Origin: Nanobdellota archaeon
Lineage (GTDB): Archaea; Nanobdellota; Nanobdellia; Nanobdellales; Nanobdellaceae
Length of the DNA: 32,000 nucleotides
Reading direction: 5' to 3'
Assembly (NCBI GenBank): GCA_042850255.1
Contig: AP031373.1
Location: 1-32,000 of the forward strand
Shown: positions 5,205 through 31,165 of the stretch, in pieces
Layout: every line of letters begins with the position of its first letter
Position numbering within the stretch: position 1 is the first letter of the stretch
Position numbers and translations under genes: made by a program
The notes under the pieces: generated by a model
What the model saw: the letters and a program-made list of their open reading frames with translations, nothing else
Told to the model about the DNA's origin: nothing
The model's database searches: none

Positions 5205-5380
5205 TTTTTATTATAATGTATTGTCCACTTTAATTCCCTATTATCTCTCCCCATTTCCCAATTTTTATAACATTTTCTACTACAGAAATATAAGATTCTT
5301 CCATCATTCAATGAATATATTAATCCTGTACCAGGTTCTATTTCATTTCCACAATATGTACATTTATTCTTTACTACCAT
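5201..5380 (-). CDS. rpl24e: 50S ribosomal protein L24e (59 aa; absent from the supplied ORF track)
   Basis: My hand translation of the minus strand gives [59 protein letters not shown]. It carries the C-x2-C...FCS-x-KC zinc-ribbon and the ...WT signature of L24e. Its TGA overlaps the ndk ATG (ATGA). It sits in the conserved archaeal rps28e-rpl24e-ndk order. Confidence 0.88.
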
Positions 5381-5381
5381 T

Positions 5382-9222: not shown

Positions 9223-10222
9223 AGATTATATAATTGCTTTATTGCCACCGATTATTTCTTTTTTAATAACATATTTTCTAGTAAAAAAATGGATACCAAT
9301 AGCACATAAATATGAATATGTAGGAAAAGATATGAACAAATATGAAAAACCAAAAGTTGCAGAAATAGGTGGTTTATATTCTATAATTGGAATAATATTT
9401 GGTATTTTAATATATATAGGATTAAAAGTATATATTTTTCATACTACAGAAGATCTTGTGCAAGTATTTGCTATATTAACTACACTATCCTTAGTTACAA
9501 TATTAGGATTATTTGATGATATACTTGGATGGAAAGAAGGATTAAAGCCTTGGGAGAAACCTTTACTAACATTAATATTAGCATTACCATTAATGATAAT
9601 ATCTGCAGGAGTCCCATATTTAAATTTTCCATTTATAGGCACAATTTACTTTGGGATCTTATATCCATTAATAATTGTTCCAATAATTATAATGGGTACT
9701 TCAAATGGTTTTAATATGCTAGCAGGATATAATGGATTGGAAGCTTCAATGGGAATATTATTAATTGGTGCTTCAGGATTAGAATTATATCTATTAGGCC
9801 AATATTATTTAGCAGAAATAGCATTAATTTCTATATTTTCTATTTTTGCATTTTTAATATTTAATTGGTATCCTGCAAAAGTTTTTCCGGGAAATTCATT
9901 TACATATGGAATAGGAACTTTATTTGGTACATTAGTAATATTGGGAAATATTGAACAATTTGGACTGATAATATTTTTATTATATATACTGGAATTATTA
10001 TTATTTGTAAGAGGATTATTAAATCATGTGTACAAAGAGAATTTTGGAATACCAAATGAGAAAAATGAATTAAAAGAACCTTATAATAAAATATATAGTG
10101 TAACTCACTTATCTATAAAATTAAACAGAAAGTTATTTAAAAAGGCGACAGAAAAGAGTGTTGTTTTAACTATATTGTTCTTCCAAATAATATTAACAAT
10201 AATAGCATTTATGTATGGTTAA
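9215..10222 (+). CDS. UDP-GlcNAc:dolichyl-phosphate GlcNAc-1-phosphate transferase-like (glycosyltransferase family 4, AglH/MraY-WecA type)
   Basis: It is a polytopic membrane protein with LGLFDDILGWK and TSNGFNMLAGYNGLEAS motifs (DD...; N.xN.laG.NGLe of GT4 phosphotransferases). I chose the ATG at 9215 (MYEDYIIALLPP...), which overlaps the aglB stop by 8 nt. The ORF-track start at 9167 lies inside aglB. Confidence 0.78.
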   Translation: MYEDYIIALLPPIISFLITYFLVKKWIPIAHKYEYVGKDMNKYEKPKVAEIGGLYSIIGIIFGILIYIGLKVYIFHTTEDLVQVFAILTTLSLVTILGLFDDILGWKEGLKPWEKPLLTLILALPLMIISAGVPYLNFPFIGTIYFGILYPLIIVPIIIMGTSNGFNMLAGYNGLEASMGILLIGASGLELYLLGQYYLAEIALISIFSIFAFLIFNWYPAKVFPGNSFTYGIGTLFGTLVILGNIEQFGLIIFLLYILELLLFVRGLLNHVYKENFGIPNEKNELKEPYNKIYSVTHLSIKLNRKLFKKATEKSVVLTILFFQIILTIIAFMYG

Positions 10223-11993
10223 AGTTATTTTAATATACTTTAATAAAAATGAAGAAAAATTATTATATAATTTATCTATATTAAATAGTTTTTGTAAAAA
10301 AAATAATTATGAATTAATATGTATAACTAAAAAAAGTTTAAGAGAATATGCTATAAAATTAAAAAACAAGTTTAATAATGTAAAATTTTACTTAATAAAT
10401 AATAAAAAAGATATTAGAAAATTAAAATTTAACGATACAACAATATTAATATATAATAATACAAATATTAACTTAAAAGAAGTAAAAAAAGGAATAGAAG
10501 ATTTAGAAGATAATAAAATAATAGTATTTAAAAATAAAATATATAAAATTAATATAATAAATCCGTATATAGTAATAGGAAGAAACATAGATATATATGA
10601 AGATTTTATTTTAACATATTTATCAAATAATAGAAAATATATAGAAAGTAAATATAATATAAACATTAATTTTTATATATTATTTACCAATTTATTAATA
10701 TTTATAAAAAAATCTATTGATTTATTTAATAAATTATTAAATATAAAATATATTAGGGATTATATAAATGAGAAAATAGGTTTAATATCTTATAAAGTAA
10801 TTACTTTTTTCTTAGTAATTATATTAGCAAGAATATTAACTCCAGAATTTTATGGAAGTTATGTTACTATATACAATTTTATTTTAATTTTATCTACCTT
10901 GATAGGTTCTTCAAATATTATATTGCAAAAAGTTTTATCAGAAAATATAAATAATATAGAAAATCAAAAAAAATATTTAAAATTAGATATTTATACAAAA
11001 ATACTTTTTTCATTAATAGCTATAATTATTATATCTTCAATTATTCCTTTCTTATTGAAAAGTATATTTTATTCTTATAATATTTTTATAATTTATATAA
11101 CATTTTTAACATCTATTTTATTAGCATTTGATGGCCTAGGATTTTCAATATTTTATTCATATTTAAAAATAAAGGAAGCAAGAAATTTATATATACTAGA
11201 AGCAATTTTTAAATTTATATTTGTAGTTTCTTTATCATTAGTATTAAAATCTTCTGGATTTATTTTTGGATTGTTATTAGCTTTTTTATCTATGGATATA
11301 GTAGAATTATATTTAATATTAAGACAATATCCAGAATTATTTGGATTTATTAAAGAAAAAATAAACAAGGATATATTTAAAAATTATCTTAGTTTAATAT
11401 TAAAAATAAGTTTGCCTCCATTATTGTTTAATCTATATTCTTCCATAGATATACAAATACTAAGAATATTTACATCTTTTCAAGATGTAGGATTATTTTA
11501 TAATGCAATGATAATAGTAGGAACAATATCTACAGTATTTTCAGTTTCTGGTATAACGCTACCAAGAATATTAAGATGGGAAAAAGAAAAAATAAAAGAA
11601 AGATTAAGCAAAATAATTGGATTACAATTATTGATTAATTTAATATTATATGGTTTGTTAATATTAATTGCTCCATATTTAATATTAATATTTTTTGGAC
11701 CTTCATATTTATTATCTGCAGAATTATTAAAATATTTAGGGATAATATTAATTATTCAATCATTTAATATATTTCCATTAATATTATATAAAAAAGGATT
11801 AGAAAAATATTATACAATATATTCTATAACTTCTTCTATTTTATCAATAATCTTAGATTTAATATTAATTCCTAGATTTAAATTAGAAGGAGCAGTCGCA
11901 TCTGCAATATTGGGAAATTTATTTAATGTTTTAATAGGATATATAATTTATGAAAAAGAATTTGATAATATCTATTCCAGATCTCTTTCTTGA
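10215..11993 (+). CDS. Wzx/RfbX-type (MOP superfamily) oligosaccharide flippase with an unrecognised N-terminal cytoplasmic extension of about 185 aa
   Basis: From about aa 185 it reads KVITFFLVIILARILTPEFYGSYV..., followed by about 12 TM segments, typical of polysaccharide biosynthesis/flippase proteins. The N-terminal 185 aa are soluble, Lys/Asn-rich and unassigned. It overlaps the upstream gene by 8 nt. Confidence 0.65.
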   Translation: MVKVILIYFNKNEEKLLYNLSILNSFCKKNNYELICITKKSLREYAIKLKNKFNNVKFYLINNKKDIRKLKFNDTTILIYNNTNINLKEVKKGIEDLEDNKIIVFKNKIYKINIINPYIVIGRNIDIYEDFILTYLSNNRKYIESKYNININFYILFTNLLIFIKKSIDLFNKLLNIKYIRDYINEKIGLISYKVITFFLVIILARILTPEFYGSYVTIYNFILILSTLIGSSNIILQKVLSENINNIENQKKYLKLDIYTKILFSLIAIIIISSIIPFLLKSIFYSYNIFIIYITFLTSILLAFDGLGFSIFYSYLKIKEARNLYILEAIFKFIFVVSLSLVLKSSGFIFGLLLAFLSMDIVELYLILRQYPELFGFIKEKINKDIFKNYLSLILKISLPPLLFNLYSSIDIQILRIFTSFQDVGLFYNAMIIVGTISTVFSVSGITLPRILRWEKEKIKERLSKIIGLQLLINLILYGLLILIAPYLILIFFGPSYLLSAELLKYLGIILIIQSFNIFPLILYKKGLEKYYTIYSITSSILSIILDLILIPRFKLEGAVASAILGNLFNVLIGYIIYEKEFDNIYSRSLS

Positions 11994-14838: not shown

Positions 14839-15309
14839 TTATAAATATATTTTATTTACTTCATAATAAACAATATCTCTTTCTATATCAATTATTCCTA
14901 ATAAAATGGTATTAATATTTTTTTCTTCCATAATTTTTAATATTTCAATGAAATCTAGAAATTCATTTTCAAATATCGGATATATATAATATTTAATTTT
15001 TTCTTTTTTCTCATCTTCATATAAAATTATTAAATTTTTATCTATTCCAACATAATATCCTTTATTTCTTAAGTCTTCAAATATATAATATTTTTTCATA
15101 TCTATTTTTTCTTTATATTTTCTAATAAAATCTATAAAATTATTTATATTTTCTAATTTTATCCAACCTTTTTTTAATCCATATAAAATTTCTTCAGGTT
15201 CTAATAATATATAATTATCTTCTAATTTACCTAATCTACCAATTTTATCATAATATTCTTTATTTACATAGAATTTATTATTTATTTCTCTAACTATAAC
15301 TTTTTCCAT
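14839..15309 (-). CDS. tRNA splicing endonuclease, structural (beta-type) subunit
   Basis: The ORF is 156 aa. YILLEPEEILYGLKKGWIKLE and YYIFEDLRNKGYYVG match the EndA N-domain and linker. The following GxKFGxDFxVY / His / Lys catalytic segment is absent. It overlaps the upstream catalytic subunit gene by 16 nt. Confidence 0.6.
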   Translation of the reverse strand: MEKVIVREINNKFYVNKEYYDKIGRLGKLEDNYILLEPEEILYGLKKGWIKLENINNFIDFIRKYKEKIDMKKYYIFEDLRNKGYYVGIDKNLIILYEDEKKEKIKYYIYPIFENEFLDFIEILKIMEEKNINTILLGIIDIERDIVYYEVNKIYL

Positions 15310-15713
15310 TTTATTTCCAAGAATATATTATCCTTTATACAATATAATATATTTTTTCTAGTACTATGAGCAACTCTATTTTTTGCTAAGAAATCATACA
15401 CATCTATTTTTTCTCCATAATTTATTGGTATTGCAATCCATTTAGAGTGTTCTCCTTTTTTTTCATATATTCTAAATACTCCTCCAAATTTTAACCCTGT
15501 TCCAACAATATATCCCTTTTTCCTAAAATATTTATAAAAATAATAGTATAATTTTATCCTTTCATTATTTAAAAAATAACTTATATCTAATTTTTCTCCT
15601 TTATCATTATAAACTTCTATTTCTCCTTTTTCTAATAAATATAAAGCATCATAAAAATAAATTATTTTATCTTGATCTAAAAATATCCCATCTTTATATA
15701 ATATTCTTCTCAT
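15294..15713 (-). CDS. endA: tRNA splicing endonuclease, catalytic (alpha-type) subunit
   Basis: FRKKGYIVGTGLKFGGVFRIYEKKGEHSKWIAIPI and RVAHSTRKNILYC carry the Tyr/His/Lys catalytic-triad context of EndA. I set the start at MRRILYKDG (ATG 15711-15713). The ORF-track N-terminus (MVERRTCNPQVRGSSPRGG) is a read-through of the tRNA-Thr gene. Confidence 0.75.
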   Translation of the reverse strand: MRRILYKDGIFLDQDKIIYFYDALYLLEKGEIEVYNDKGEKLDISYFLNNERIKLYYYFYKYFRKKGYIVGTGLKFGGVFRIYEKKGEHSKWIAIPINYGEKIDVYDFLAKNRVAHSTRKNILYCIKDNIFLEIKWKKL

Positions 15714-15742
15714 AAATTGATAATATAAGACTTTTTTATAAA

Positions 15743-15815
15743 TGCCGCCGCGGGGACTTGAACCCCGGACCTGCGGATTACAAGTCCGCCGCTCTACCAA
15801 CTGAGCTACGGCGGC
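15743..15815 (-). tRNA. tRNA-Thr (anticodon UGU), contiguous, no intron, no encoded CCA
   Basis: The reverse complement is GCCGCCGTAGCTCAGTTGGTAGAGCGGCGGACTTGTAATCCGCAGGTCCGGGGTTCAAGTCCCCGCGGCGGCA. It has acceptor GCCGCCG/CGGCGGC, anticodon stem GCGGA/TCCGC with loop CTTGTAA, and T-arm CGGGG-TTCAAGT-CCCCG. Confidence 0.93.
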
Positions 15816-15850
15816 ATAAAATAAAATTTCAAAAAATAAAATTTAAAACT

Positions 15851-17859: not shown

Positions 17860-18098
17860 AATATAAAAAATTATGAAAGATCTTAAATAATGAGGGACTC
17901 CTATCTTAAAATATTTAAATGGTATAAAAAATTAGAAAATTATATAAAATATTTTAAAATAAATATTATACTATATTTAATCCTTTTATTAAATAATTTA
18001 AAAATAATCGTAAGATATTTGAGAAAAAATATATTTGTACATAGATTATTTACGAATTAAAAATTTAAAATAATGGAAAATATACAGTATTCAAAAAA

Positions 18099-24911: not shown

Positions 24912-26155
24912 TGATGGACCCATATAAAATTAGAGAAGATTTTCCAATATTAAAAAGGAAAATAAATGGAAAGAATTTAGTATATTTTGATAATGCAGCA
25001 ACAACACAAAAACCATTGAGAGTAATAAATAAGTTTGTAGAAGTATATACACAATATTATGCAAATATACATAGGGGAGTTCATACATTGTCACAAGAAG
25101 CTTCTGATAAATATGAAGAAGCGCATAAATTAGTTGCGGAATTTCTAAATGCAAAAGATTGGAGAGAAATAATATTTACTAGAAATGCTACAGAATCAAT
25201 AAATTTATTTGCATATTCTTATGGATTAAATAATTTAAAGAGAGATGATAAAATTGTATTGACAAAGATGGAACATCATGCAAATTTAGTACCTTGGCAA
25301 TATGTTTCACAAAAAACAGGAGCAAGAATTGAATATATAGATTTTGATAAAGATTATAGATTAGATTTAAATCAAGCAGAAAAAATAATTGATGAAAAAA
25401 CAAAAATAGTTGCAATAACTCATGCTTCAAATGTACTAGGTACTGTAAATCCAATAAAAGATATAATAAAAATTGCACATGAAAAAGGAGCAATTGTATT
25501 AATAGACGGAGCACAAAGTATTCCACATACAAAAATAGATGTTAAAAAATATGATATAGATTTTTTAGCATTTAGTGCACATAAAATGATGGGACCAGAT
25601 GGAATTGGAGTATTATATGGAAAAGAAGAAATATTAGAAAAAATGGATCCATTCTTAAGAGGAGGAGATATGATAAAAGATGTAGATTTATATAATGCAG
25701 AATGGAATGATCTACCATGGAAATTTGAAGCAGGGACTCCAAATATTGCGGGAGGAATTGTATTTGGTGAAACAATAAGATATATAAATGAAATTGGAAT
25801 GGAAAATATAGAAGAATATGATAAATATATTACAAAATATTTTATTGAAAAATATAATGAATATAATATAAATGATTTAATATTAATAGGACCAAACGAT
25901 TATAAAGATAGAACTCCTACATTTTCTTTCTACACCAAAAAATATAATTCACATCAAATCGCAAAGTTATTAGATTTGAATGGAATAGAAGTAAGATCAG
26001 GATTCCATTGTGCTCATCCATTATTAAAGAATATTAAAATATTTAATAATAACCTATTTAATTTGGGAGGAACATTTAGAGCAAGTTTGTATATATATAA
26101 TACTAAAGAAGAAATAGACTATTTCTTTGAAGTATTAAAAAATTTACTTAAATAG
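24908..26155 (+). CDS. sufS: Cysteine desulfurase SufS/CsdA (class V aminotransferase, PLP-dependent)
   Basis: YFDNAATTQKP, HRGVHTLS, FSAHKMMGPDGIGVLYG (PLP Lys) and RSGFHCAHPL (catalytic Cys loop). Its ATG overlaps the sufB stop (ATGA). Confidence 0.9.
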   Translation: MMMDPYKIREDFPILKRKINGKNLVYFDNAATTQKPLRVINKFVEVYTQYYANIHRGVHTLSQEASDKYEEAHKLVAEFLNAKDWREIIFTRNATESINLFAYSYGLNNLKRDDKIVLTKMEHHANLVPWQYVSQKTGARIEYIDFDKDYRLDLNQAEKIIDEKTKIVAITHASNVLGTVNPIKDIIKIAHEKGAIVLIDGAQSIPHTKIDVKKYDIDFLAFSAHKMMGPDGIGVLYGKEEILEKMDPFLRGGDMIKDVDLYNAEWNDLPWKFEAGTPNIAGGIVFGETIRYINEIGMENIEEYDKYITKYFIEKYNEYNINDLILIGPNDYKDRTPTFSFYTKKYNSHQIAKLLDLNGIEVRSGFHCAHPLLKNIKIFNNNLFNLGGTFRASLYIYNTKEEIDYFFEVLKNLLK

Positions 26156-28456
26156 CCAATTATATATTATTTTTATACTTTTCTTTATTTTTCTTCTAGC
26201 TTCAAATTTTTTTAAACCAAAATAATCTGATATTTTATTAAAACTCCATGATAATAAAAATTTTCCTATTAATACCTCTTCATCCTCTATCTTTGGTTTA
26301 TCCTTATCTGTATATAATAAATAATATATATATAGTAATTTTGCAACATCTGCAGCAGCTTCATATGTCATAGGTGATTCTAAGTATCCTTTTAACCTTT
26401 CTATTTGATTATCAGTTAGCAATAATTTAAAGTGAGGTTTAAAGCTATAAGGAGTTTCTAACATTTTTAATATTAATTTTGGTTCTAAATCGAAATATAC
26501 GTCTGATATTTGATTAATTAATCTCCATCTAAATTCATAATTTAATTTTTTCACCATTTTTTCTGTTTCTTCATTTAAAGGTTTTAATACTATTCCAGAA
26601 TATTCTCCAGATACTTTATTCTTTTCCGGAGATAAATGAACTAAAACAAATCCATTTTTTTGCCAAAAGTTTAATAATTCATAAGTAATACCAAAACTAG
26701 ATCCTATCCAATCATAATTATTTTCTTTTCCCCATTTAGCTAATCCTTCCAAAGATATAGATCCCAAACCCAATCCTTGTATTTCTGGTATTGTTGCTAT
26801 TCTAACAACCCTTAACCCCTTTAATTTTGCAAATTCTTTTAATCTATAATGTTTTACAATTATATCGGGTATTATATTTCCTTTTGGTTTAAAGTCTTTT
26901 AACATTCTTTCTATTGTTTCTTCGTCAATATTTCCTTCATAAGCAATTTGTATTCCATTAACAATTTTTCCATTATTTAATTCTAATACAAAAGCATCAT
27001 GATGAGGAGCATCTGCAAGCATTGCTACATCATTCGGTTTATTTTGGTAATGAGCAAGAATATATATCCCAACAAAACTTTTTAATTTTGGATTATCATT
27101 ATAAAACCAATCTTTTAATGGTATTTTATAAAATCTAACTTTTCTATTTTTTATTAATTCTATATCTTCATTATTTATTTCATCAGGTTCAGAATCTAAT
27201 AATAATGTATCATATAACCATTTTTCAATTGGATCTCCTTCTCCATATCTTATTGGCTCTACCATATTATACTTATATATTTTAACACCAGTTAAATTAT
27301 TCAAATATTTCAGAAATCTTACAGAAAATGATCTTCCAGCTCCTTCATATCCATGAATGGTAGAAGAGAATACTATCTTTTTATATTTTTCCACAAACCT
27401 ATATAAAAATAGAATACCAATTCCTGCTGCTTCATCAACAAACAAAATATCATAATTTTTCTTTAGAATATCAGAGGGTTTTCTATATTCTATATATATT
27501 TTATTTTTTATAGCTATTTTATCTTTTCTTATTTCTTTATATTCTATATTATTTTTATTTAATCCCAATTTTAAAAATTCAAACAATGTTTCTACATTAT
27601 CAAATTCTGGAGCAGTAATCCCTATATCATATATTTTATTTTTTTCTAATAATATTTCAACCAAACCTGCTATAGATAATCCTAAAGAAGCACTCTTGCC
27701 TCTGCCTCTATCAGCTATAATTAAAAATATTGATTTTTCATTTTTTAATATATTTTCTAACATATTTAACACATTAACCTGATCTTGCGTTAAACATAAC
27801 TTATATATTCTATCTGAAAATATTTTATTTTCATTTATTATTAATTTTTTTCTTCCAGGAGGAACTGCTTTATTTATATCACAATCATAATTTACTCCTT
27901 TTATTAACCCTTTTTCGATATCATATATTATTATATTATCATATTGCAATAACTTTTGTTTAAATCTATATTCAAAATATTTTCTTACATCTTCTATTTT
28001 ATATGGAGGAGTTAAAAGATGTTCATGAAATGTAGTTATAATTTCTTCAAAATTTTCAAAATCTTTTATTAAGAAAAAGGCAATTCCAGAACCTGATAAT
28101 GTTTCTACAATCCTTCCTATATGATCAGGAGTTAAAGATTTATACATATCCAATATTAATATATCAAATGTTTTACCTAATATATCTTTAGAATCTTTAT
28201 ATTTTATTTTCTTTATATTAAATTCTTTTAATTTTTCTTCTATTTTTTCATATCTATATAGAAAATCTCCATAATAATCTTCTGTAGCATATAAAATATT
28301 TATGTCTTGTTTAAAGTTTTTTATTACTTCATAATATCTATTAATTAATTGATATAATAATTCAAAATAATTATTTCCAGATATAACCACAATCCCTCTA
28401 TAATTGTTACTTATTATATTGCATAATAATTTATCATAATTTTCCATAAGGTCCAT
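26144..28456 (-). CDS. tmcA: tRNA(Met) cytidine acetyltransferase TmcA / Nat10-type RNA acetyltransferase (DUF1726-helicase-GNAT)
   Basis: IIADRGRGKSASLGLSIAG (Walker A), FVDEAAGI (Walker B), SSTIHGYEGAGRSFSVRF, and a GNAT region RIATIPEIQGLGLGS. The ORF is 770 aa. Its 3' end overlaps sufS convergently by 12 nt. Confidence 0.88.
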   Translation of the reverse strand: MDLMENYDKLLCNIISNNYRGIVVISGNNYFELLYQLINRYYEVIKNFKQDINILYATEDYYGDFLYRYEKIEEKLKEFNIKKIKYKDSKDILGKTFDILILDMYKSLTPDHIGRIVETLSGSGIAFFLIKDFENFEEIITTFHEHLLTPPYKIEDVRKYFEYRFKQKLLQYDNIIIYDIEKGLIKGVNYDCDINKAVPPGRKKLIINENKIFSDRIYKLCLTQDQVNVLNMLENILKNEKSIFLIIADRGRGKSASLGLSIAGLVEILLEKNKIYDIGITAPEFDNVETLFEFLKLGLNKNNIEYKEIRKDKIAIKNKIYIEYRKPSDILKKNYDILFVDEAAGIGILFLYRFVEKYKKIVFSSTIHGYEGAGRSFSVRFLKYLNNLTGVKIYKYNMVEPIRYGEGDPIEKWLYDTLLLDSEPDEINNEDIELIKNRKVRFYKIPLKDWFYNDNPKLKSFVGIYILAHYQNKPNDVAMLADAPHHDAFVLELNNGKIVNGIQIAYEGNIDEETIERMLKDFKPKGNIIPDIIVKHYRLKEFAKLKGLRVVRIATIPEIQGLGLGSISLEGLAKWGKENNYDWIGSSFGITYELLNFWQKNGFVLVHLSPEKNKVSGEYSGIVLKPLNEETEKMVKKLNYEFRWRLINQISDVYFDLEPKLILKMLETPYSFKPHFKLLLTDNQIERLKGYLESPMTYEAAADVAKLLYIYYLLYTDKDKPKIEDEEVLIGKFLLSWSFNKISDYFGLKKFEARRKIKKSIKIIYNWLFK

Positions 28457-28509
28457 AAATATTATCTTAAGAAATGATTTAAGAACCTATTTTATAATTA
28501 TTAAAATAA

Positions 28510-28750
28510 CGTTAAGAAAATGTTAAGTTCCATTAAATGGTTAAATCACTAAATTAATTATATGTTAAACTGATAAAACTTTCATATTAAATTATGTTAA
28601 AATGTTAATTAACTTTATTAATATATTGTTAAACAATATTAAGATGTTAAATAAATCTGTTAATTATATGTTAAATTGATAAAAAATTTTAATTAAATTA
28701 AGTTAAAATGTTAAATTATTATATTAATTATGTGTTAAATTAATGTTAAA
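28510..28750 (+). repeat. Iteron-like array of about 14 direct copies of (A)TGTTAA(A), including an ~81-nt segment duplicated with 106-bp period (28554-28634 and 28660-28740)
   Basis: GTTAA starts at about 28511, 28522, 28540, 28564, 28596, 28603, 28628, 28646, 28659, 28670, 28702, 28710, 28734 and 28744, all on the plus strand. My manual ungapped alignment of the two 81-nt copies gives about 65/81 identities. A perfect palindrome GTTAATTAAC lies at about 28603-28612. No ORF is present. This is the longest non-coding gap in the window (307 bp). Confidence 0.7.
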
Positions 28751-28763
28751 TTTAAATTAAAAA

Positions 28764-30527
28764 TCATAATAAATAATATCTTAATTTTGTATCTAATGAC
28801 TTTAACAATTTTTCATCATCTACTATAACTATAGATAATCCTTTAGTAATACCTCCAGCATATAATCTAGATGTTCTTCCAGATGCTTGTATATAAGATT
28901 TTAAATCAACAATTTTAATATATATATCATTATTTACAATTTCTGTAGAAACATCAGGATTTTCTTTTATTTTTTCTATTATCTCTTTATCTTTTATATA
29001 TTCGGATATCTTATTATATAACCATAAAATATCTTCAGCTATTTTTTTATTATATCCTTCCAAATTTACATTATTTCCTTTAATATATTCATTTATTAAT
29101 CTTAAAGCCTCTGAAGATAATTTTTTTAGATTTTTTCTAATATTATCAACTTTCCTATTAAGATTAATTTTTTCTAATTCTGGTAAAGTAGAAGAAATAA
29201 TAGAAGATAAAATTAAAATATTGTTTATATTTTTATCTAATTTGGTCAAATTTATTTTTATTTTTGGAATCCCAACAAATATAGCATATTTTATTCTTTC
29301 AGGAATATCTAATCCCCTAACTAATATACCATAAGGATCAGATATCCCTATTAATACATTGATCTTTCCATCACTAAAATTTTTAATTATTTCATCTACA
29401 TTTTTAACTTCTGAAGATACATATTCTATATTTACATTATTTTTCTTTAAGAATTCGTATAATTCTTTCATATATTCTACCCCTTTATCTTTAGGTACAA
29501 ATATTAATATTCCATCATTTAGTATTTTTATTAATTTTAAAACTTCATTTTCAATACTTTCAGTTGGATAATAATAAATATCTGTTATATTTCTTATTTT
29601 AGAACTTCCGGTACCTACTGTAAAATTTGCCAATTCTTTATATAATAATACTCTTTTCCCTCTTAAACTTCCAGTAGCAGATGATAATACTATAATACCA
29701 ACATTCTTTTTCTTAATTTCCAAAAATTTTTTGTATATATCACTATTAAAATCTAATCTTCCAGATAATTTTAAATCTATTATTCTTTTAGCTAAACTAA
29801 TTTCTTCTTCATCATATCCTATTAAATTAAAAATTCTTTCTATATTTTTAGATCCTTTAAAGAATGAATCTACATCATCTATAAATACTATATCGAATTT
29901 TTTATCTTTTATTAGATCAAAATTTTTTGATAAAAATTGATTAGAAATAATTAATATTTTATAATTCCCTTCTTTTATTTTTTCTTTTAATTCTTTTTTG
30001 TTATTCCCATAATAATATGCTATATCCAGATTTAAATTTAATTTTGATAAAAATTCATTAAATTTATCTAAAGCTTGTTTTACCAATAATCTTGTAGGTA
30101 AAACAATTAATACCCTTTTATTATATTTCCAGGAGAAATATATAGATGCTACAGTTATGAATGTTGATTTTCCTATTCCAGTTGGAGCAATCATAGAAAA
30201 ACTAGAATTTTTATATAATCTTTTAAACCACATTAATTGTATCTTCCAAGGATAATTATTAATTAAACTATTAAAGAATTCTTTAAATTGCTTTGTTTCT
30301 TTATATAATTTATATATCTCCTCAAAATTTTTTAATCTATTTTTTTCTTTTAATTTTTTGTATAAAATTTCCATAAATTCATTTTCATCTTTTATATTAA
30401 TTAGATCTAATATTTCATTCTCATTTAAATCTTCTTCACATGGTAATGCATTTGATAATCTATATGATGATATTAAATTACCACAATTGAAGCATAAATT
30501 TTTTATATATAAAGGTATATAATCCAT
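28764..30527 (-). CDS. rgy: Reverse gyrase, N-terminal zinc-finger plus helicase-like module only (stand-alone split subunit; no topoisomerase IA domain)
   Basis: There is an N-terminal Cys motif (NLCFNCGN...PCEE). The SF2 helicase motifs are MIAPTGIGKSTF (I), FIDDVDSF (II), SSATG (III) and QASGRTSRLYAGGITKGLS (VI). The ORF terminates about 35 aa after motif VI. The next downstream gene is tmcA, not a topoisomerase domain. Confidence 0.85.
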   Translation of the reverse strand: MDYIPLYIKNLCFNCGNLISSYRLSNALPCEEDLNENEILDLINIKDENEFMEILYKKLKEKNRLKNFEEIYKLYKETKQFKEFFNSLINNYPWKIQLMWFKRLYKNSSFSMIAPTGIGKSTFITVASIYFSWKYNKRVLIVLPTRLLVKQALDKFNEFLSKLNLNLDIAYYYGNNKKELKEKIKEGNYKILIISNQFLSKNFDLIKDKKFDIVFIDDVDSFFKGSKNIERIFNLIGYDEEEISLAKRIIDLKLSGRLDFNSDIYKKFLEIKKKNVGIIVLSSATGSLRGKRVLLYKELANFTVGTGSSKIRNITDIYYYPTESIENEVLKLIKILNDGILIFVPKDKGVEYMKELYEFLKKNNVNIEYVSSEVKNVDEIIKNFSDGKINVLIGISDPYGILVRGLDIPERIKYAIFVGIPKIKINLTKLDKNINNILILSSIISSTLPELEKINLNRKVDNIRKNLKKLSSEALRLINEYIKGNNVNLEGYNKKIAEDILWLYNKISEYIKDKEIIEKIKENPDVSTEIVNNDIYIKIVDLKSYIQASGRTSRLYAGGITKGLSIVIVDDEKLLKSLDTKLRYYLL

Positions 30528-30565: not shown

Positions 30566-31165
30566 ATGGATATTTCTGATATATTTACTCAATTACAAAG
30601 AGAAAAAGAAAGAAAAAATCTTGAAAAATTACAAAAAGACTTTTATATTAAAATTTCTGAGATGATAAAAAGATATAAAAAACAATTAGAATTATATAAA
30701 GTAGATAGTAAAGAATATAGAGACCTAAATTCCACTATATATAAAATAAAAGAATCTGTTTATGAATTAATTAATATAAGAATAGAAAAAATAGTAAAAA
30801 TGACATTATTAGAAGTAAAAGAAAATTTAAATGCAATTCCTGAAGAAAATTTAGAAGAAGAAGAAAAATTATTATATAAAATATTAAAAAATTTACTGGT
30901 TTCTTTTAAAAATAATATAACAGATAAGATAGTAGAAGGTGAAGAAATAGATGTAAATAATTTCTTTAATAGTATTGGAAAAGAAGTAATTATATCACAA
31001 GATAAAGTTGATAAAGAAATATTGATAATAAAAAATGATCTTCCAAAGATAGTAGGACCAAATGGTAAGATATATGGACCCTTTAAAGTAGGAGATATAT
31101 TATTTATAGAGAAAAGTTTAGCAGAAAAGATGGAAAATGTAAAGATTGGAAAAAGAATTTCTTAA
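30566..31165 (+). CDS. Putative GINS complex subunit (Gins51/Gins15-like)
   Basis: The ORF is 199 aa. The N-terminal helical region (DIFTQLQREKERKNLEKLQKDFY...) and the C-terminal segment (DLPKIVGPNGKIYGPFKVGDILFIEKSLAEKM) resemble the archaeal Gins51 A and B domains (L..E....L..l..dFY; YGPFK.GD) as I remember the family pattern. This is not search-verified. Confidence 0.5.
   Translation: MDISDIFTQLQREKERKNLEKLQKDFYIKISEMIKRYKKQLELYKVDSKEYRDLNSTIYKIKESVYELINIRIEKIVKMTLLEVKENLNAIPEENLEEEEKLLYKILKNLLVSFKNNITDKIVEGEEIDVNNFFNSIGKEVIISQDKVDKEILIIKNDLPKIVGPNGKIYGPFKVGDILFIEKSLAEKMENVKIGKRIS

Follow-up and report, generated by a model that had tools for sequence, protein, structure and literature searches.

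In the ParR-parC segregation systems of R1 and pSK41, repeats of 10-11 bp recur once per helical turn over ~100-160 bp of DNA, and the bound protein is thought to coat one face of the duplex as a superhelix. In Escherichia coli, the direct-repeat element read by ArcA consists of TGTTAA half-sites arranged head to tail at 11-bp spacing. Here we report a candidate element of this general kind in an archaeon. In a stretch of 32,000 nucleotides from the genome of a Nanobdellota archaeon (contig AP031373.1, positions 1 to 32,000; hereafter the window), a 307-bp gap separates tmcA, encoding a tRNA/RNA cytidine acetyltransferase, from rgyN, encoding the helicase half of a split reverse gyrase, and is filled with a ladder of short motifs that share a TTAA core and are phased with the DNA helix. 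The gap is very probably a cis-acting DNA element and not a gene, and we infer from its sequence and its conservation that the ladder is bound by protein at the DNA level. A helically phased array of binding sites is a known kind of element, and this particular array is undescribed in the searched literature; for Nanopusillaceae and Nanobdellaceae that literature reports neither a TGTTAAA ladder nor an origin, and it has no replication origin, centromere or regulator-operator pair for these nanoarchaea.

The genomes of Nanoarchaeota are among the smallest and most compact of cellular genomes and hold almost no non-coding DNA. Because lineages this compact keep 170-340 bp filled with a phase-locked ladder, the array probably has an important cis-acting function. 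It is carried by two organisms in cultivation whose genomes are complete, Nanopusillus acidilobi and Nanobdella aerobiophila, which makes the question directly testable, with the ladder itself as bait for the binder.

Motif content and helical phasing of the rgyN-tmcA gap

Protein matches assign the window to thermophilic Nanoarchaeota. The window is densely coded at ~23% GC, and the gap, co-directional with both of its flanking genes, has 12% GC. Its repeated features are as follows.

28511..28749, plus strand: array of 14 GTTAA motifs in one orientation (consensus a-T-G-T-T-A-A-a), part of a 30-core TTAA ladder with 10.6-bp phasing and conserved syntenic arrays
28512..28617, plus strand: first copy of a 106-bp internal duplication, comprising two modules of 53 bp, or five turns, each (internal repeat search, 75% identity over 106 nt)
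28618..28723, plus strand: second copy of the 106-bp internal duplication (repeat search and best self-similarity at offset 106)
28604..28613, no strand assigned: perfect palindrome GTTAATTAAC, which holds the only inverted (minus-strand) GTTAA of the array

The plus-strand GTTAA motifs start at 28511, 28522, 28540, 28564, 28596, 28604, 28628, 28646, 28659, 28670, 28702, 28710, 28734 and 28745, giving start-to-start spacings of 11, 18, 24, 32, 8, 24, 18, 13, 11, 32, 8, 24 and 11. An earlier inspection of the window, made from its letters without database searches (the sequence-only reading), had counted about 14 GTTAA in a single orientation and placed a perfect palindrome in the first of two duplicated blocks; both observations hold, with 14 copies on the plus strand, one more on the minus strand inside GTTAATTAAC, and the palindrome at 28604-28613. 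The recurring spacings that it had given as 32, 7 and 25 are 32, 8 and 24 when measured from start to start, while its estimate of about 80% identity between the blocks 28554-28634 and 28660-28740 was accurate (65/81 = 80%). Over the gap as a whole, self-similarity is best at an offset of 106 (60% against a mean of 39%), and the 106-bp duplication resolves into two 53-bp, five-turn modules, each with four sites at 0, 8, 21 and 32. The longer motif ATGTTAAA occurs in the gap in six exact copies and in six further copies at one mismatch.

The GTTAA cluster is local and not compositional, because the window-wide count of GTTAA (109) lies at the shuffle expectation (113) and the other intergenic DNA is nearly empty of the motif, with one GTTAA per strand in total and none in a 239-bp gap of 13% GC. 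Outside the rgyN-tmcA gap no 250-bp segment of the window carries more than three copies per strand, which bears out the excess over chance claimed in the sequence-only reading; the equal density in other intergenic DNA that would have marked a compositional artefact is not seen within the window. The conserved core of the motif is TTAA, which is present in the gap 30 times against ~11 expected from the gap's own composition.

Phasing was assessed against random site placement, with the Rayleigh statistic computed for periods between 6 and 20 bp. For the GTTAA motifs the peak period is 10.6 bp (R = 0.73, p = 0.0003), and the TTAA cores of the gap share this 10.6-bp period, with none of 4000 random placements as good (p<1/4000). 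Likewise, none of 4000 placements was as good for the arrays at four other loci, designated L264, L129, L007 and L452. In a set of five arrays the best period, over the same scanned range, is 10.5-10.7 bp. In a control AT-rich gap at 17860-18098, nine TTAA are found against 7.8 expected, with no phasing (p = 0.28). Across 26 distinct arrays the best period is 10.5-10.95 bp, with R between 0.54 and 0.96. With about one site per helical turn, the ladder thus occupies a single face of the duplex. Relaxed DNA at 65-85 C is expected to have a helical repeat of 10.6-10.9 bp, given a thermal unwinding of ~0.011 degrees per bp per C, and all sites would for this reason face the same way at growth temperature.

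Conservation and divergence among nanoarchaeal lineages

The 26 distinct syntenic array sequences come from Nanopusillus, Nanobsidianus, Nanobdella, Nanoclepta-like and further lineages, 13 of them retrieved by a metagenome scan with TmcA alignment. The order GINS - rgyN - gap - tmcA is kept in every fetched nanoarchaeal locus that extends past rgyN, two contigs ending before tmcA. GTTAA in the orientation seen in the window is found at the syntenic gap in four loci, those of a JGI relative (L001; 14 copies), Nanobdella aerobiophila (L002; seven), Nanopusillus (L005; six) and the Nanobsidianus-like locus L008 (nine). Alignment of five arrays shows spacers that differ and (G/A)TTAA motifs that make up the invariant columns, and the four-site module (0, 8, 21, 32) is the architecture common to the five. 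The close relative L001 has no second 106-bp copy. Counted from the ATG of tmcA, its site positions from 74 to 233 are also those of the window, ten site positions in all being shared. The array is found in lineages down to 45-50% rgyN identity with the gap size kept at 170-340 bp, and in most arrays the phase of the ladder relative to the tmcA ATG is ~0, with TTAA cores running on into the 55 promoter-proximal bp. A complete rgyN-tmcA gap is the top phased-TTAA region of every fetched locus that keeps it, with a power of 8.3-12.1 against at most 5.8 elsewhere.

A scan of GTDB species genomes with the four-site module retrieved at least eight genomes of Nanopusillaceae, with the complete ones of N. 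acidilobi and N. aerobiophila among them; in the matches listed, each of these eight has one locus with two modules 64 bp apart, always in the rgyN-tmcA gap. Scans of viral sequences for the motif pattern were dominated by chance matches among the matches listed. A search for loci with broken synteny (12 look-ups and a metagenome scan) yielded loci of just two kinds, those in which rgyN-tmcA synteny is intact and unrelated tmcA loci of archaea with no array. The array lies at ~358.7 kb in N. acidilobi (L245, CP010514.1) and at ~394.4 kb in N. aerobiophila (L002, AP019769.1), that is, at fractional genome coordinates of 0.592 and 0.590, respectively, which suggests that both complete records start at one deliberately chosen homologous landmark. 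In the Nanobdella locus, a TnpB / Cas12f-like (IS605 OrfB) gene (L002 1-482) lies ~10 kb from the array and is not seen in other relatives.

The lack of conservation in relatives that would have spoken against the sequence-only reading is not what these loci display, and its proposal of cooperative protein binding to direct repeats at the DNA level gains from them: motif and positions are conserved in the 26 arrays, spacers diverge, and helical phasing is present in all. Selection appears to act on the sites rather than on the overall sequence. An alternative is that the array is a functionless minisatellite, produced by slippage expansion of an 11-bp unit in AT-rich DNA, which would account for the lineage-specific internal duplications (106 bp in the window, 73 bp in L454) and for the copy number that differs between lineages. 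A neutral repeat would be expected to decay uniformly with no positional conservation, whereas here the motifs are conserved between randomized spacers, the site positions are common to species whose rgyN is 58-77% identical to that of the window, the array persists at 45-50% rgyN identity, and the control AT-rich gap has no such signal. We therefore consider a neutral minisatellite very improbable.

The array of L454 (7768-8085), with its own 73-bp internal duplication, has in common with the L001 gap a GC-rich island, TATGCGACGTTAA. Given this common island and the lineage-specific duplications, the arrays evolve by local duplication with the phase kept.

The lineages differ in how the core is flanked and oriented. 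In Nanoclepta-like arrays the G is not kept and the TTAA ladder is nearly perfect, as in L129, whose sites lie at 0, 11, 22, 32, 55, 66, 76, 86, 107, 131, 142, 153, 164, 175 and 186 (R = 0.92). The 340-bp gap of L264 holds 23 TTAA, 15 of which belong to TTTAAC (inverted GTTAAA) at mostly 11-bp spacing, in addition to four GTTAAA, three of them at the rgyN end; L264 and L129 each have two sub-arrays in opposite orientation. In L452, TGTTAACA palindromes recur at 10-11 bp. Because the strand differs between lineages, the recognized unit is probably TGTTAAA in either orientation, not fixed relative to tmcA. The motif is nonetheless polar, and over 12 arrays GTTAA was counted 110 times against 15 for TTAAC, the base before TTAA being G 110 times and C three times.

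This polarity bears on the idea that the ladder is a structural or chromatin element, in which phased, flexible TpA steps would make the DNA anisotropically bendable with no dedicated binder, either positioning histones or forming a temperature- or supercoil-sensitive bend upstream of tmcA. Such an element would fit the conservation of the TTAA core alone in Nanoclepta-like arrays, the phase coherence over as many as 30 turns, and a period of 10.6-10.9 bp that matches relaxed DNA at 65-85 C. Bendability is strand-symmetric, and the flanks are not (G 110 against C 3 before TTAA, and GTTAA 110 against TTAAC 15, in the 12 arrays); moreover, the period is longer than expected of left-handed histone wrapping, and wedge-model curvature appears modest, at about the 90th percentile (12.3 degrees per 30 bp for the array against a window mean of 10.8, with approximate wedge parameters, and an end-to-end ratio in the lowest 6-10%). 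A purely structural role is in our view improbable.

The changes of strand also make it doubtful that the gap encodes a non-coding RNA or a transcript that bears the repeats, an option raised in the sequence-only reading. Since the gap is co-directional with both neighbours, read-through or leader transcription would be possible. No Rfam family was matched, either at the gathering threshold or at E values up to 10, where only noise was returned; the minimum free energy is no better than that of shuffled sequences on either strand (z = +0.64 and +1.13); the gap has 12% GC in a thermophile; and a 10.6-bp phasing would be meaningless for RNA. A structured RNA was rejected on the missing Rfam match, the missing fold signal, the low GC content and the strand flips, and a functional transcript of any such kind is extremely unlikely.

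Flanking genes and a possible role at tmcA

The genes next to the array are arranged as tmcA (minus strand), the 307-bp gap, rgyN (minus strand) and a GINS gene (plus strand), and two probable expression signals lie at the ends of the gap.

26144..28456, minus strand: tmcA, tRNA/RNA cytidine acetyltransferase (Pfam TmcA_N, NAT10_TcmA_helicase and GNAT_acetyltr_2; NCBIfam match)
28457..28510, minus strand: tmcA-proximal 54 bp, probable tmcA core promoter, predicted from a TATA-like TTTAATAATTATAAAA at ~28491-28509
28750..28763, minus strand: T run (TTTTT on the minus strand) right after the rgyN stop, probable archaeal oligo-T terminator of rgyN, predicted from its sequence
28764..30527, minus strand: rgyN, helicase (N-terminal) half of a split reverse gyrase (TIGR01054 rgy, model positions 3-555 of 1172; zf_Rg zinc finger)
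30566..31165, plus strand: GINS subunit gene (Gins51-like; Pfam Gins51_C and Sld5), a neighbour in every syntenic locus

The Pfam and NCBIfam matches agree with the neighbours named in the sequence-only reading, namely TmcA, the helicase half of reverse gyrase and GINS. The topoisomerase half of reverse gyrase must be encoded elsewhere than at 28764-30527, and protein matches show reverse gyrase to be split likewise in all relatives; the rgyN protein of the window is 100% identical to a database protein of a 'Nanoarchaeota archaeon' and 58-77% identical to those of Nanobdella, Nanopusillus and Nanobsidianus relatives. Two small conserved neighbours, a 79-aa protein and an MJ0538-like protein, were considered as binders and set aside as not DNA-binding in appearance.

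The stop codon of rgyN abuts the array and tmcA is the first gene downstream of it. TTAA cores at 28467, 28479 and 28501 extend the ladder, still in register, as far as the ATG of tmcA, and the ladder spans exactly the interval from the probable rgyN terminator to that ATG. Because it fills the terminator-to-ATG interval and stays in register through the TATA region, a role as operator or architectural array acting on tmcA is the most likely of the functions considered, and we favour it tentatively, at somewhat less than an even chance. A putative sequence-specific DNA-binding protein would bind cooperatively along one face of the ladder, or wrap the DNA, and the whole rgyN-tmcA intergenic region would become a single nucleoprotein complex. 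The occupied ladder would occlude or remodel the tmcA core promoter, and could in this way switch tmcA transcription and insulate tmcA from rgyN read-through. If so, a heat-relevant RNA-acetylation enzyme would be tied to a nucleoprotein switch of an unusual kind, next to reverse gyrase.

One lineage has lost the array. In L131 (GCA_053994055.1, 34% GC), tmcA starts 4 bp after rgyN (11755-11760), with no gap and no array, and the element is dispensable or relocated there. This loss, with tmcA joined to the rgyN transcription unit, is simple to explain if the array serves only tmcA expression.

Several observations weigh against a role at tmcA. Pfam and NCBIfam scans of the conserved neighbourhood found no candidate regulator gene, and no binder was identified. 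Ten to 30 sites at one promoter are unusually many for an archaeal regulator, and no second target is seen in the 32-kb window, which is easier to square with a single site on the chromosome than with a regulon. The orientation of the motif relative to tmcA is not conserved between lineages. Finally, no such upstream array is present at the tmcA loci of other archaea (more than 60), and control of tmcA thus does not generally involve the element.

Elsewhere in the window, the statement in the sequence-only reading that the rgyN-tmcA gap is the only long non-coding gap holds as far as its 307 bp are the longest, and has to be amended for two others, of 239 bp (17860-18098) and 177 bp (5205-5381). 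The former, a second long AT-rich gap with 13% GC, lies upstream of a gene for a 1219-aa beta-helix, probably surface, protein and has a 10/20-bp tandem repeat of its own, TAAAATATTA, at 17907-17961. The latter, between NDK and S28e, has 27% GC, which is high for non-coding DNA in the window, and may conceal a small gene or RNA that escaped annotation, or a start that was mis-called. At 14839-15800 lie two adjacent, overlapping paralogues of tRNA-splicing endonuclease (156 and 168 aa), which suggests that the enzyme is heteromeric. With its listed TTG start the second of them overlaps tRNA-Thr (15742-15816) by ~59 nt, and that start is for this reason probably mis-called. The lowest coding GC of the window, down to ~15%, is found at 10001-11500 within a polysaccharide-biosynthesis (flippase-like) gene.

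Chromosome-maintenance readings and comparison with known systems

It is possible, if doubtful, that the ladder is instead a chromosome-maintenance site of thermophilic Nanoarchaeota, either an origin or a centromere- or terminus-type element, unlinked to orc1. A divergent Orc1 or another protein would then read a non-ORB (origin recognition box) TGTTAAA code with one site per helical turn. As a maintenance site the ladder would be the first cis-acting element for replication or segregation to be defined in a DPANN archaeon; were it an origin or a centromere, its recognition code would be new.

As a replication origin, the array would act as an iteron-like ladder on which an initiator (Orc1/Cdc6 or other) oligomerizes and opens adjacent AT-rich DNA. 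Several features suit this role: the region exceeds every other intergenic region of a very compact genome in length and ranks with the most AT-rich of them; its many phased sites resemble arrays of low-affinity initiator sites; the opposed sub-arrays of L264 and L129 recall inverted ORBs on either side of an unwinding element; genes for replication are conserved nearby, with GINS adjacent and PolB ~10 kb away; and a second such array was seen in no fetched locus. Set against these, no orc1/cdc6 gene is found within -28 kb (window) or +12 kb (relatives) by Pfam and NCBIfam searches of the window open reading frames and of the unannotated open reading frames of the relatives. The ORB and mini-ORB motif, sought as a dyad with a TTCCA-N-TGGAAA core, is absent from the gap even at up to two mismatches, a level at which it has 20 matches in the window against 16 expected. 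We accordingly rejected a canonical ORB origin, given an ORB motif at chance level and no orc1/cdc6 among the window or neighbour open reading frames. Third-codon-position composition shows no apparent step at the array, and tmcA and rgyN are equal in skew; the pooled third-codon-position AT skew does differ between the two sides, and this difference was traced gene by gene to a block of probable membrane genes (~10-28 kb per side). Furthermore, the Nanopusillus array proper is only ~120 bp long and L131 has no gap. If base 1 had been set at orc1 in both complete records, the fractional coordinate of 0.59 would place the array far from orc1, nearly antipodal to it, and it is a lead only. Of the checks proposed with the sequence-only reading, that for a nearby orc1/cdc6 was negative over -28 kb and +12 kb, and that for a skew inflection gave no apparent step at the array over ~10-28 kb per side. 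The missing orc1/cdc6 and ORB, the composition without an apparent step and the loss of the gap in L131 count against its origin option without excluding it. We rate an origin as rather unlikely.

A centromere-like or otherwise chromosome-organizing site, involved in segregation or acting as a fork barrier or terminus, would have its ladder coated superhelically by a partner protein, as ParR coats parC. One site per turn over 10 to 30 turns matches the type II/III plasmid centromeres (R1 parC, pSK41 parC, tubC), the site is apparently unique per locus, its copy number and orientation vary between lineages, and it lies at position 0.59 in both complete genomes. In opposition to this, no ParA/SegA, ParM, TubZ-like or small DNA-binding gene lies beside the array, the downstream gene being tmcA; the array is absent from L131; and no archaeal chromosomal precedent with the TGTTAAA motif is known. 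We regard a site of this type as quite unlikely. Our ranking accordingly puts a tmcA-linked nucleoprotein switch first, an origin second, a centromere-like or chromosomal site third, and a structural or chromatin element fourth.

Among known systems, membership of the ladder in each compared family fails on at least one defining feature. Like parC, it consists of repeats once per turn, at 10-11 bp and multiples (R up to 0.96), directly upstream of and overlapping a promoter. parC sits before the parMR operon, which encodes its own binder, whereas the ladder is chromosomal and archaeal, has an unrelated motif and precedes tmcA instead of an operon for a binder and its NTPase, with no ParM, ParA or TubZ-like gene within 10 kb.

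With archaeal oriC regions built on ORB or mini-ORB motifs, the locus shares a long AT-rich intergenic region, a short motif in many copies, opposed sub-arrays in some lineages and replication genes nearby; it differs in having no ORB dyad, no adjacent orc1/cdc6 and no recognizable separate unwinding element, and its one site per turn is much denser than ORBs. Iterons of plasmids and the arrays of low-affinity DnaA boxes at E. coli oriC are likewise helically phased direct repeats that guide initiator oligomerization, and can also be opposed. The helical phasing of iterons is found here, but they are bacterial or plasmid repeats of 17-22 bp beside a rep gene, whereas the unit of the ladder is 5-8 bp with no rep-like gene nearby.

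The remaining comparisons concern transcriptional regulators. Promoters wrapped by Lrp/AsnC (FFRP) proteins, a family common in archaea, resemble the locus in their multiple phased sites upstream of a promoter and in the ~32-bp (three-turn) spacing of the strongest sites of the window (28564, 28596, 28628 and so on); Lrp sites are 13-15-bp palindromes, those of the ladder are short and polar, and there is no adjacent Lrp gene. Operators of the ArcA and OmpR-PhoB type have two to five repeats against the nine to 30 of the ladder, and response regulators of this family are, to our knowledge, not known in Nanoarchaeota; the likeness is coincidental and implies no homology. With the same TGTTAA and the same 11-bp spacing, these operators nonetheless show how a winged-helix protein could read the ladder.

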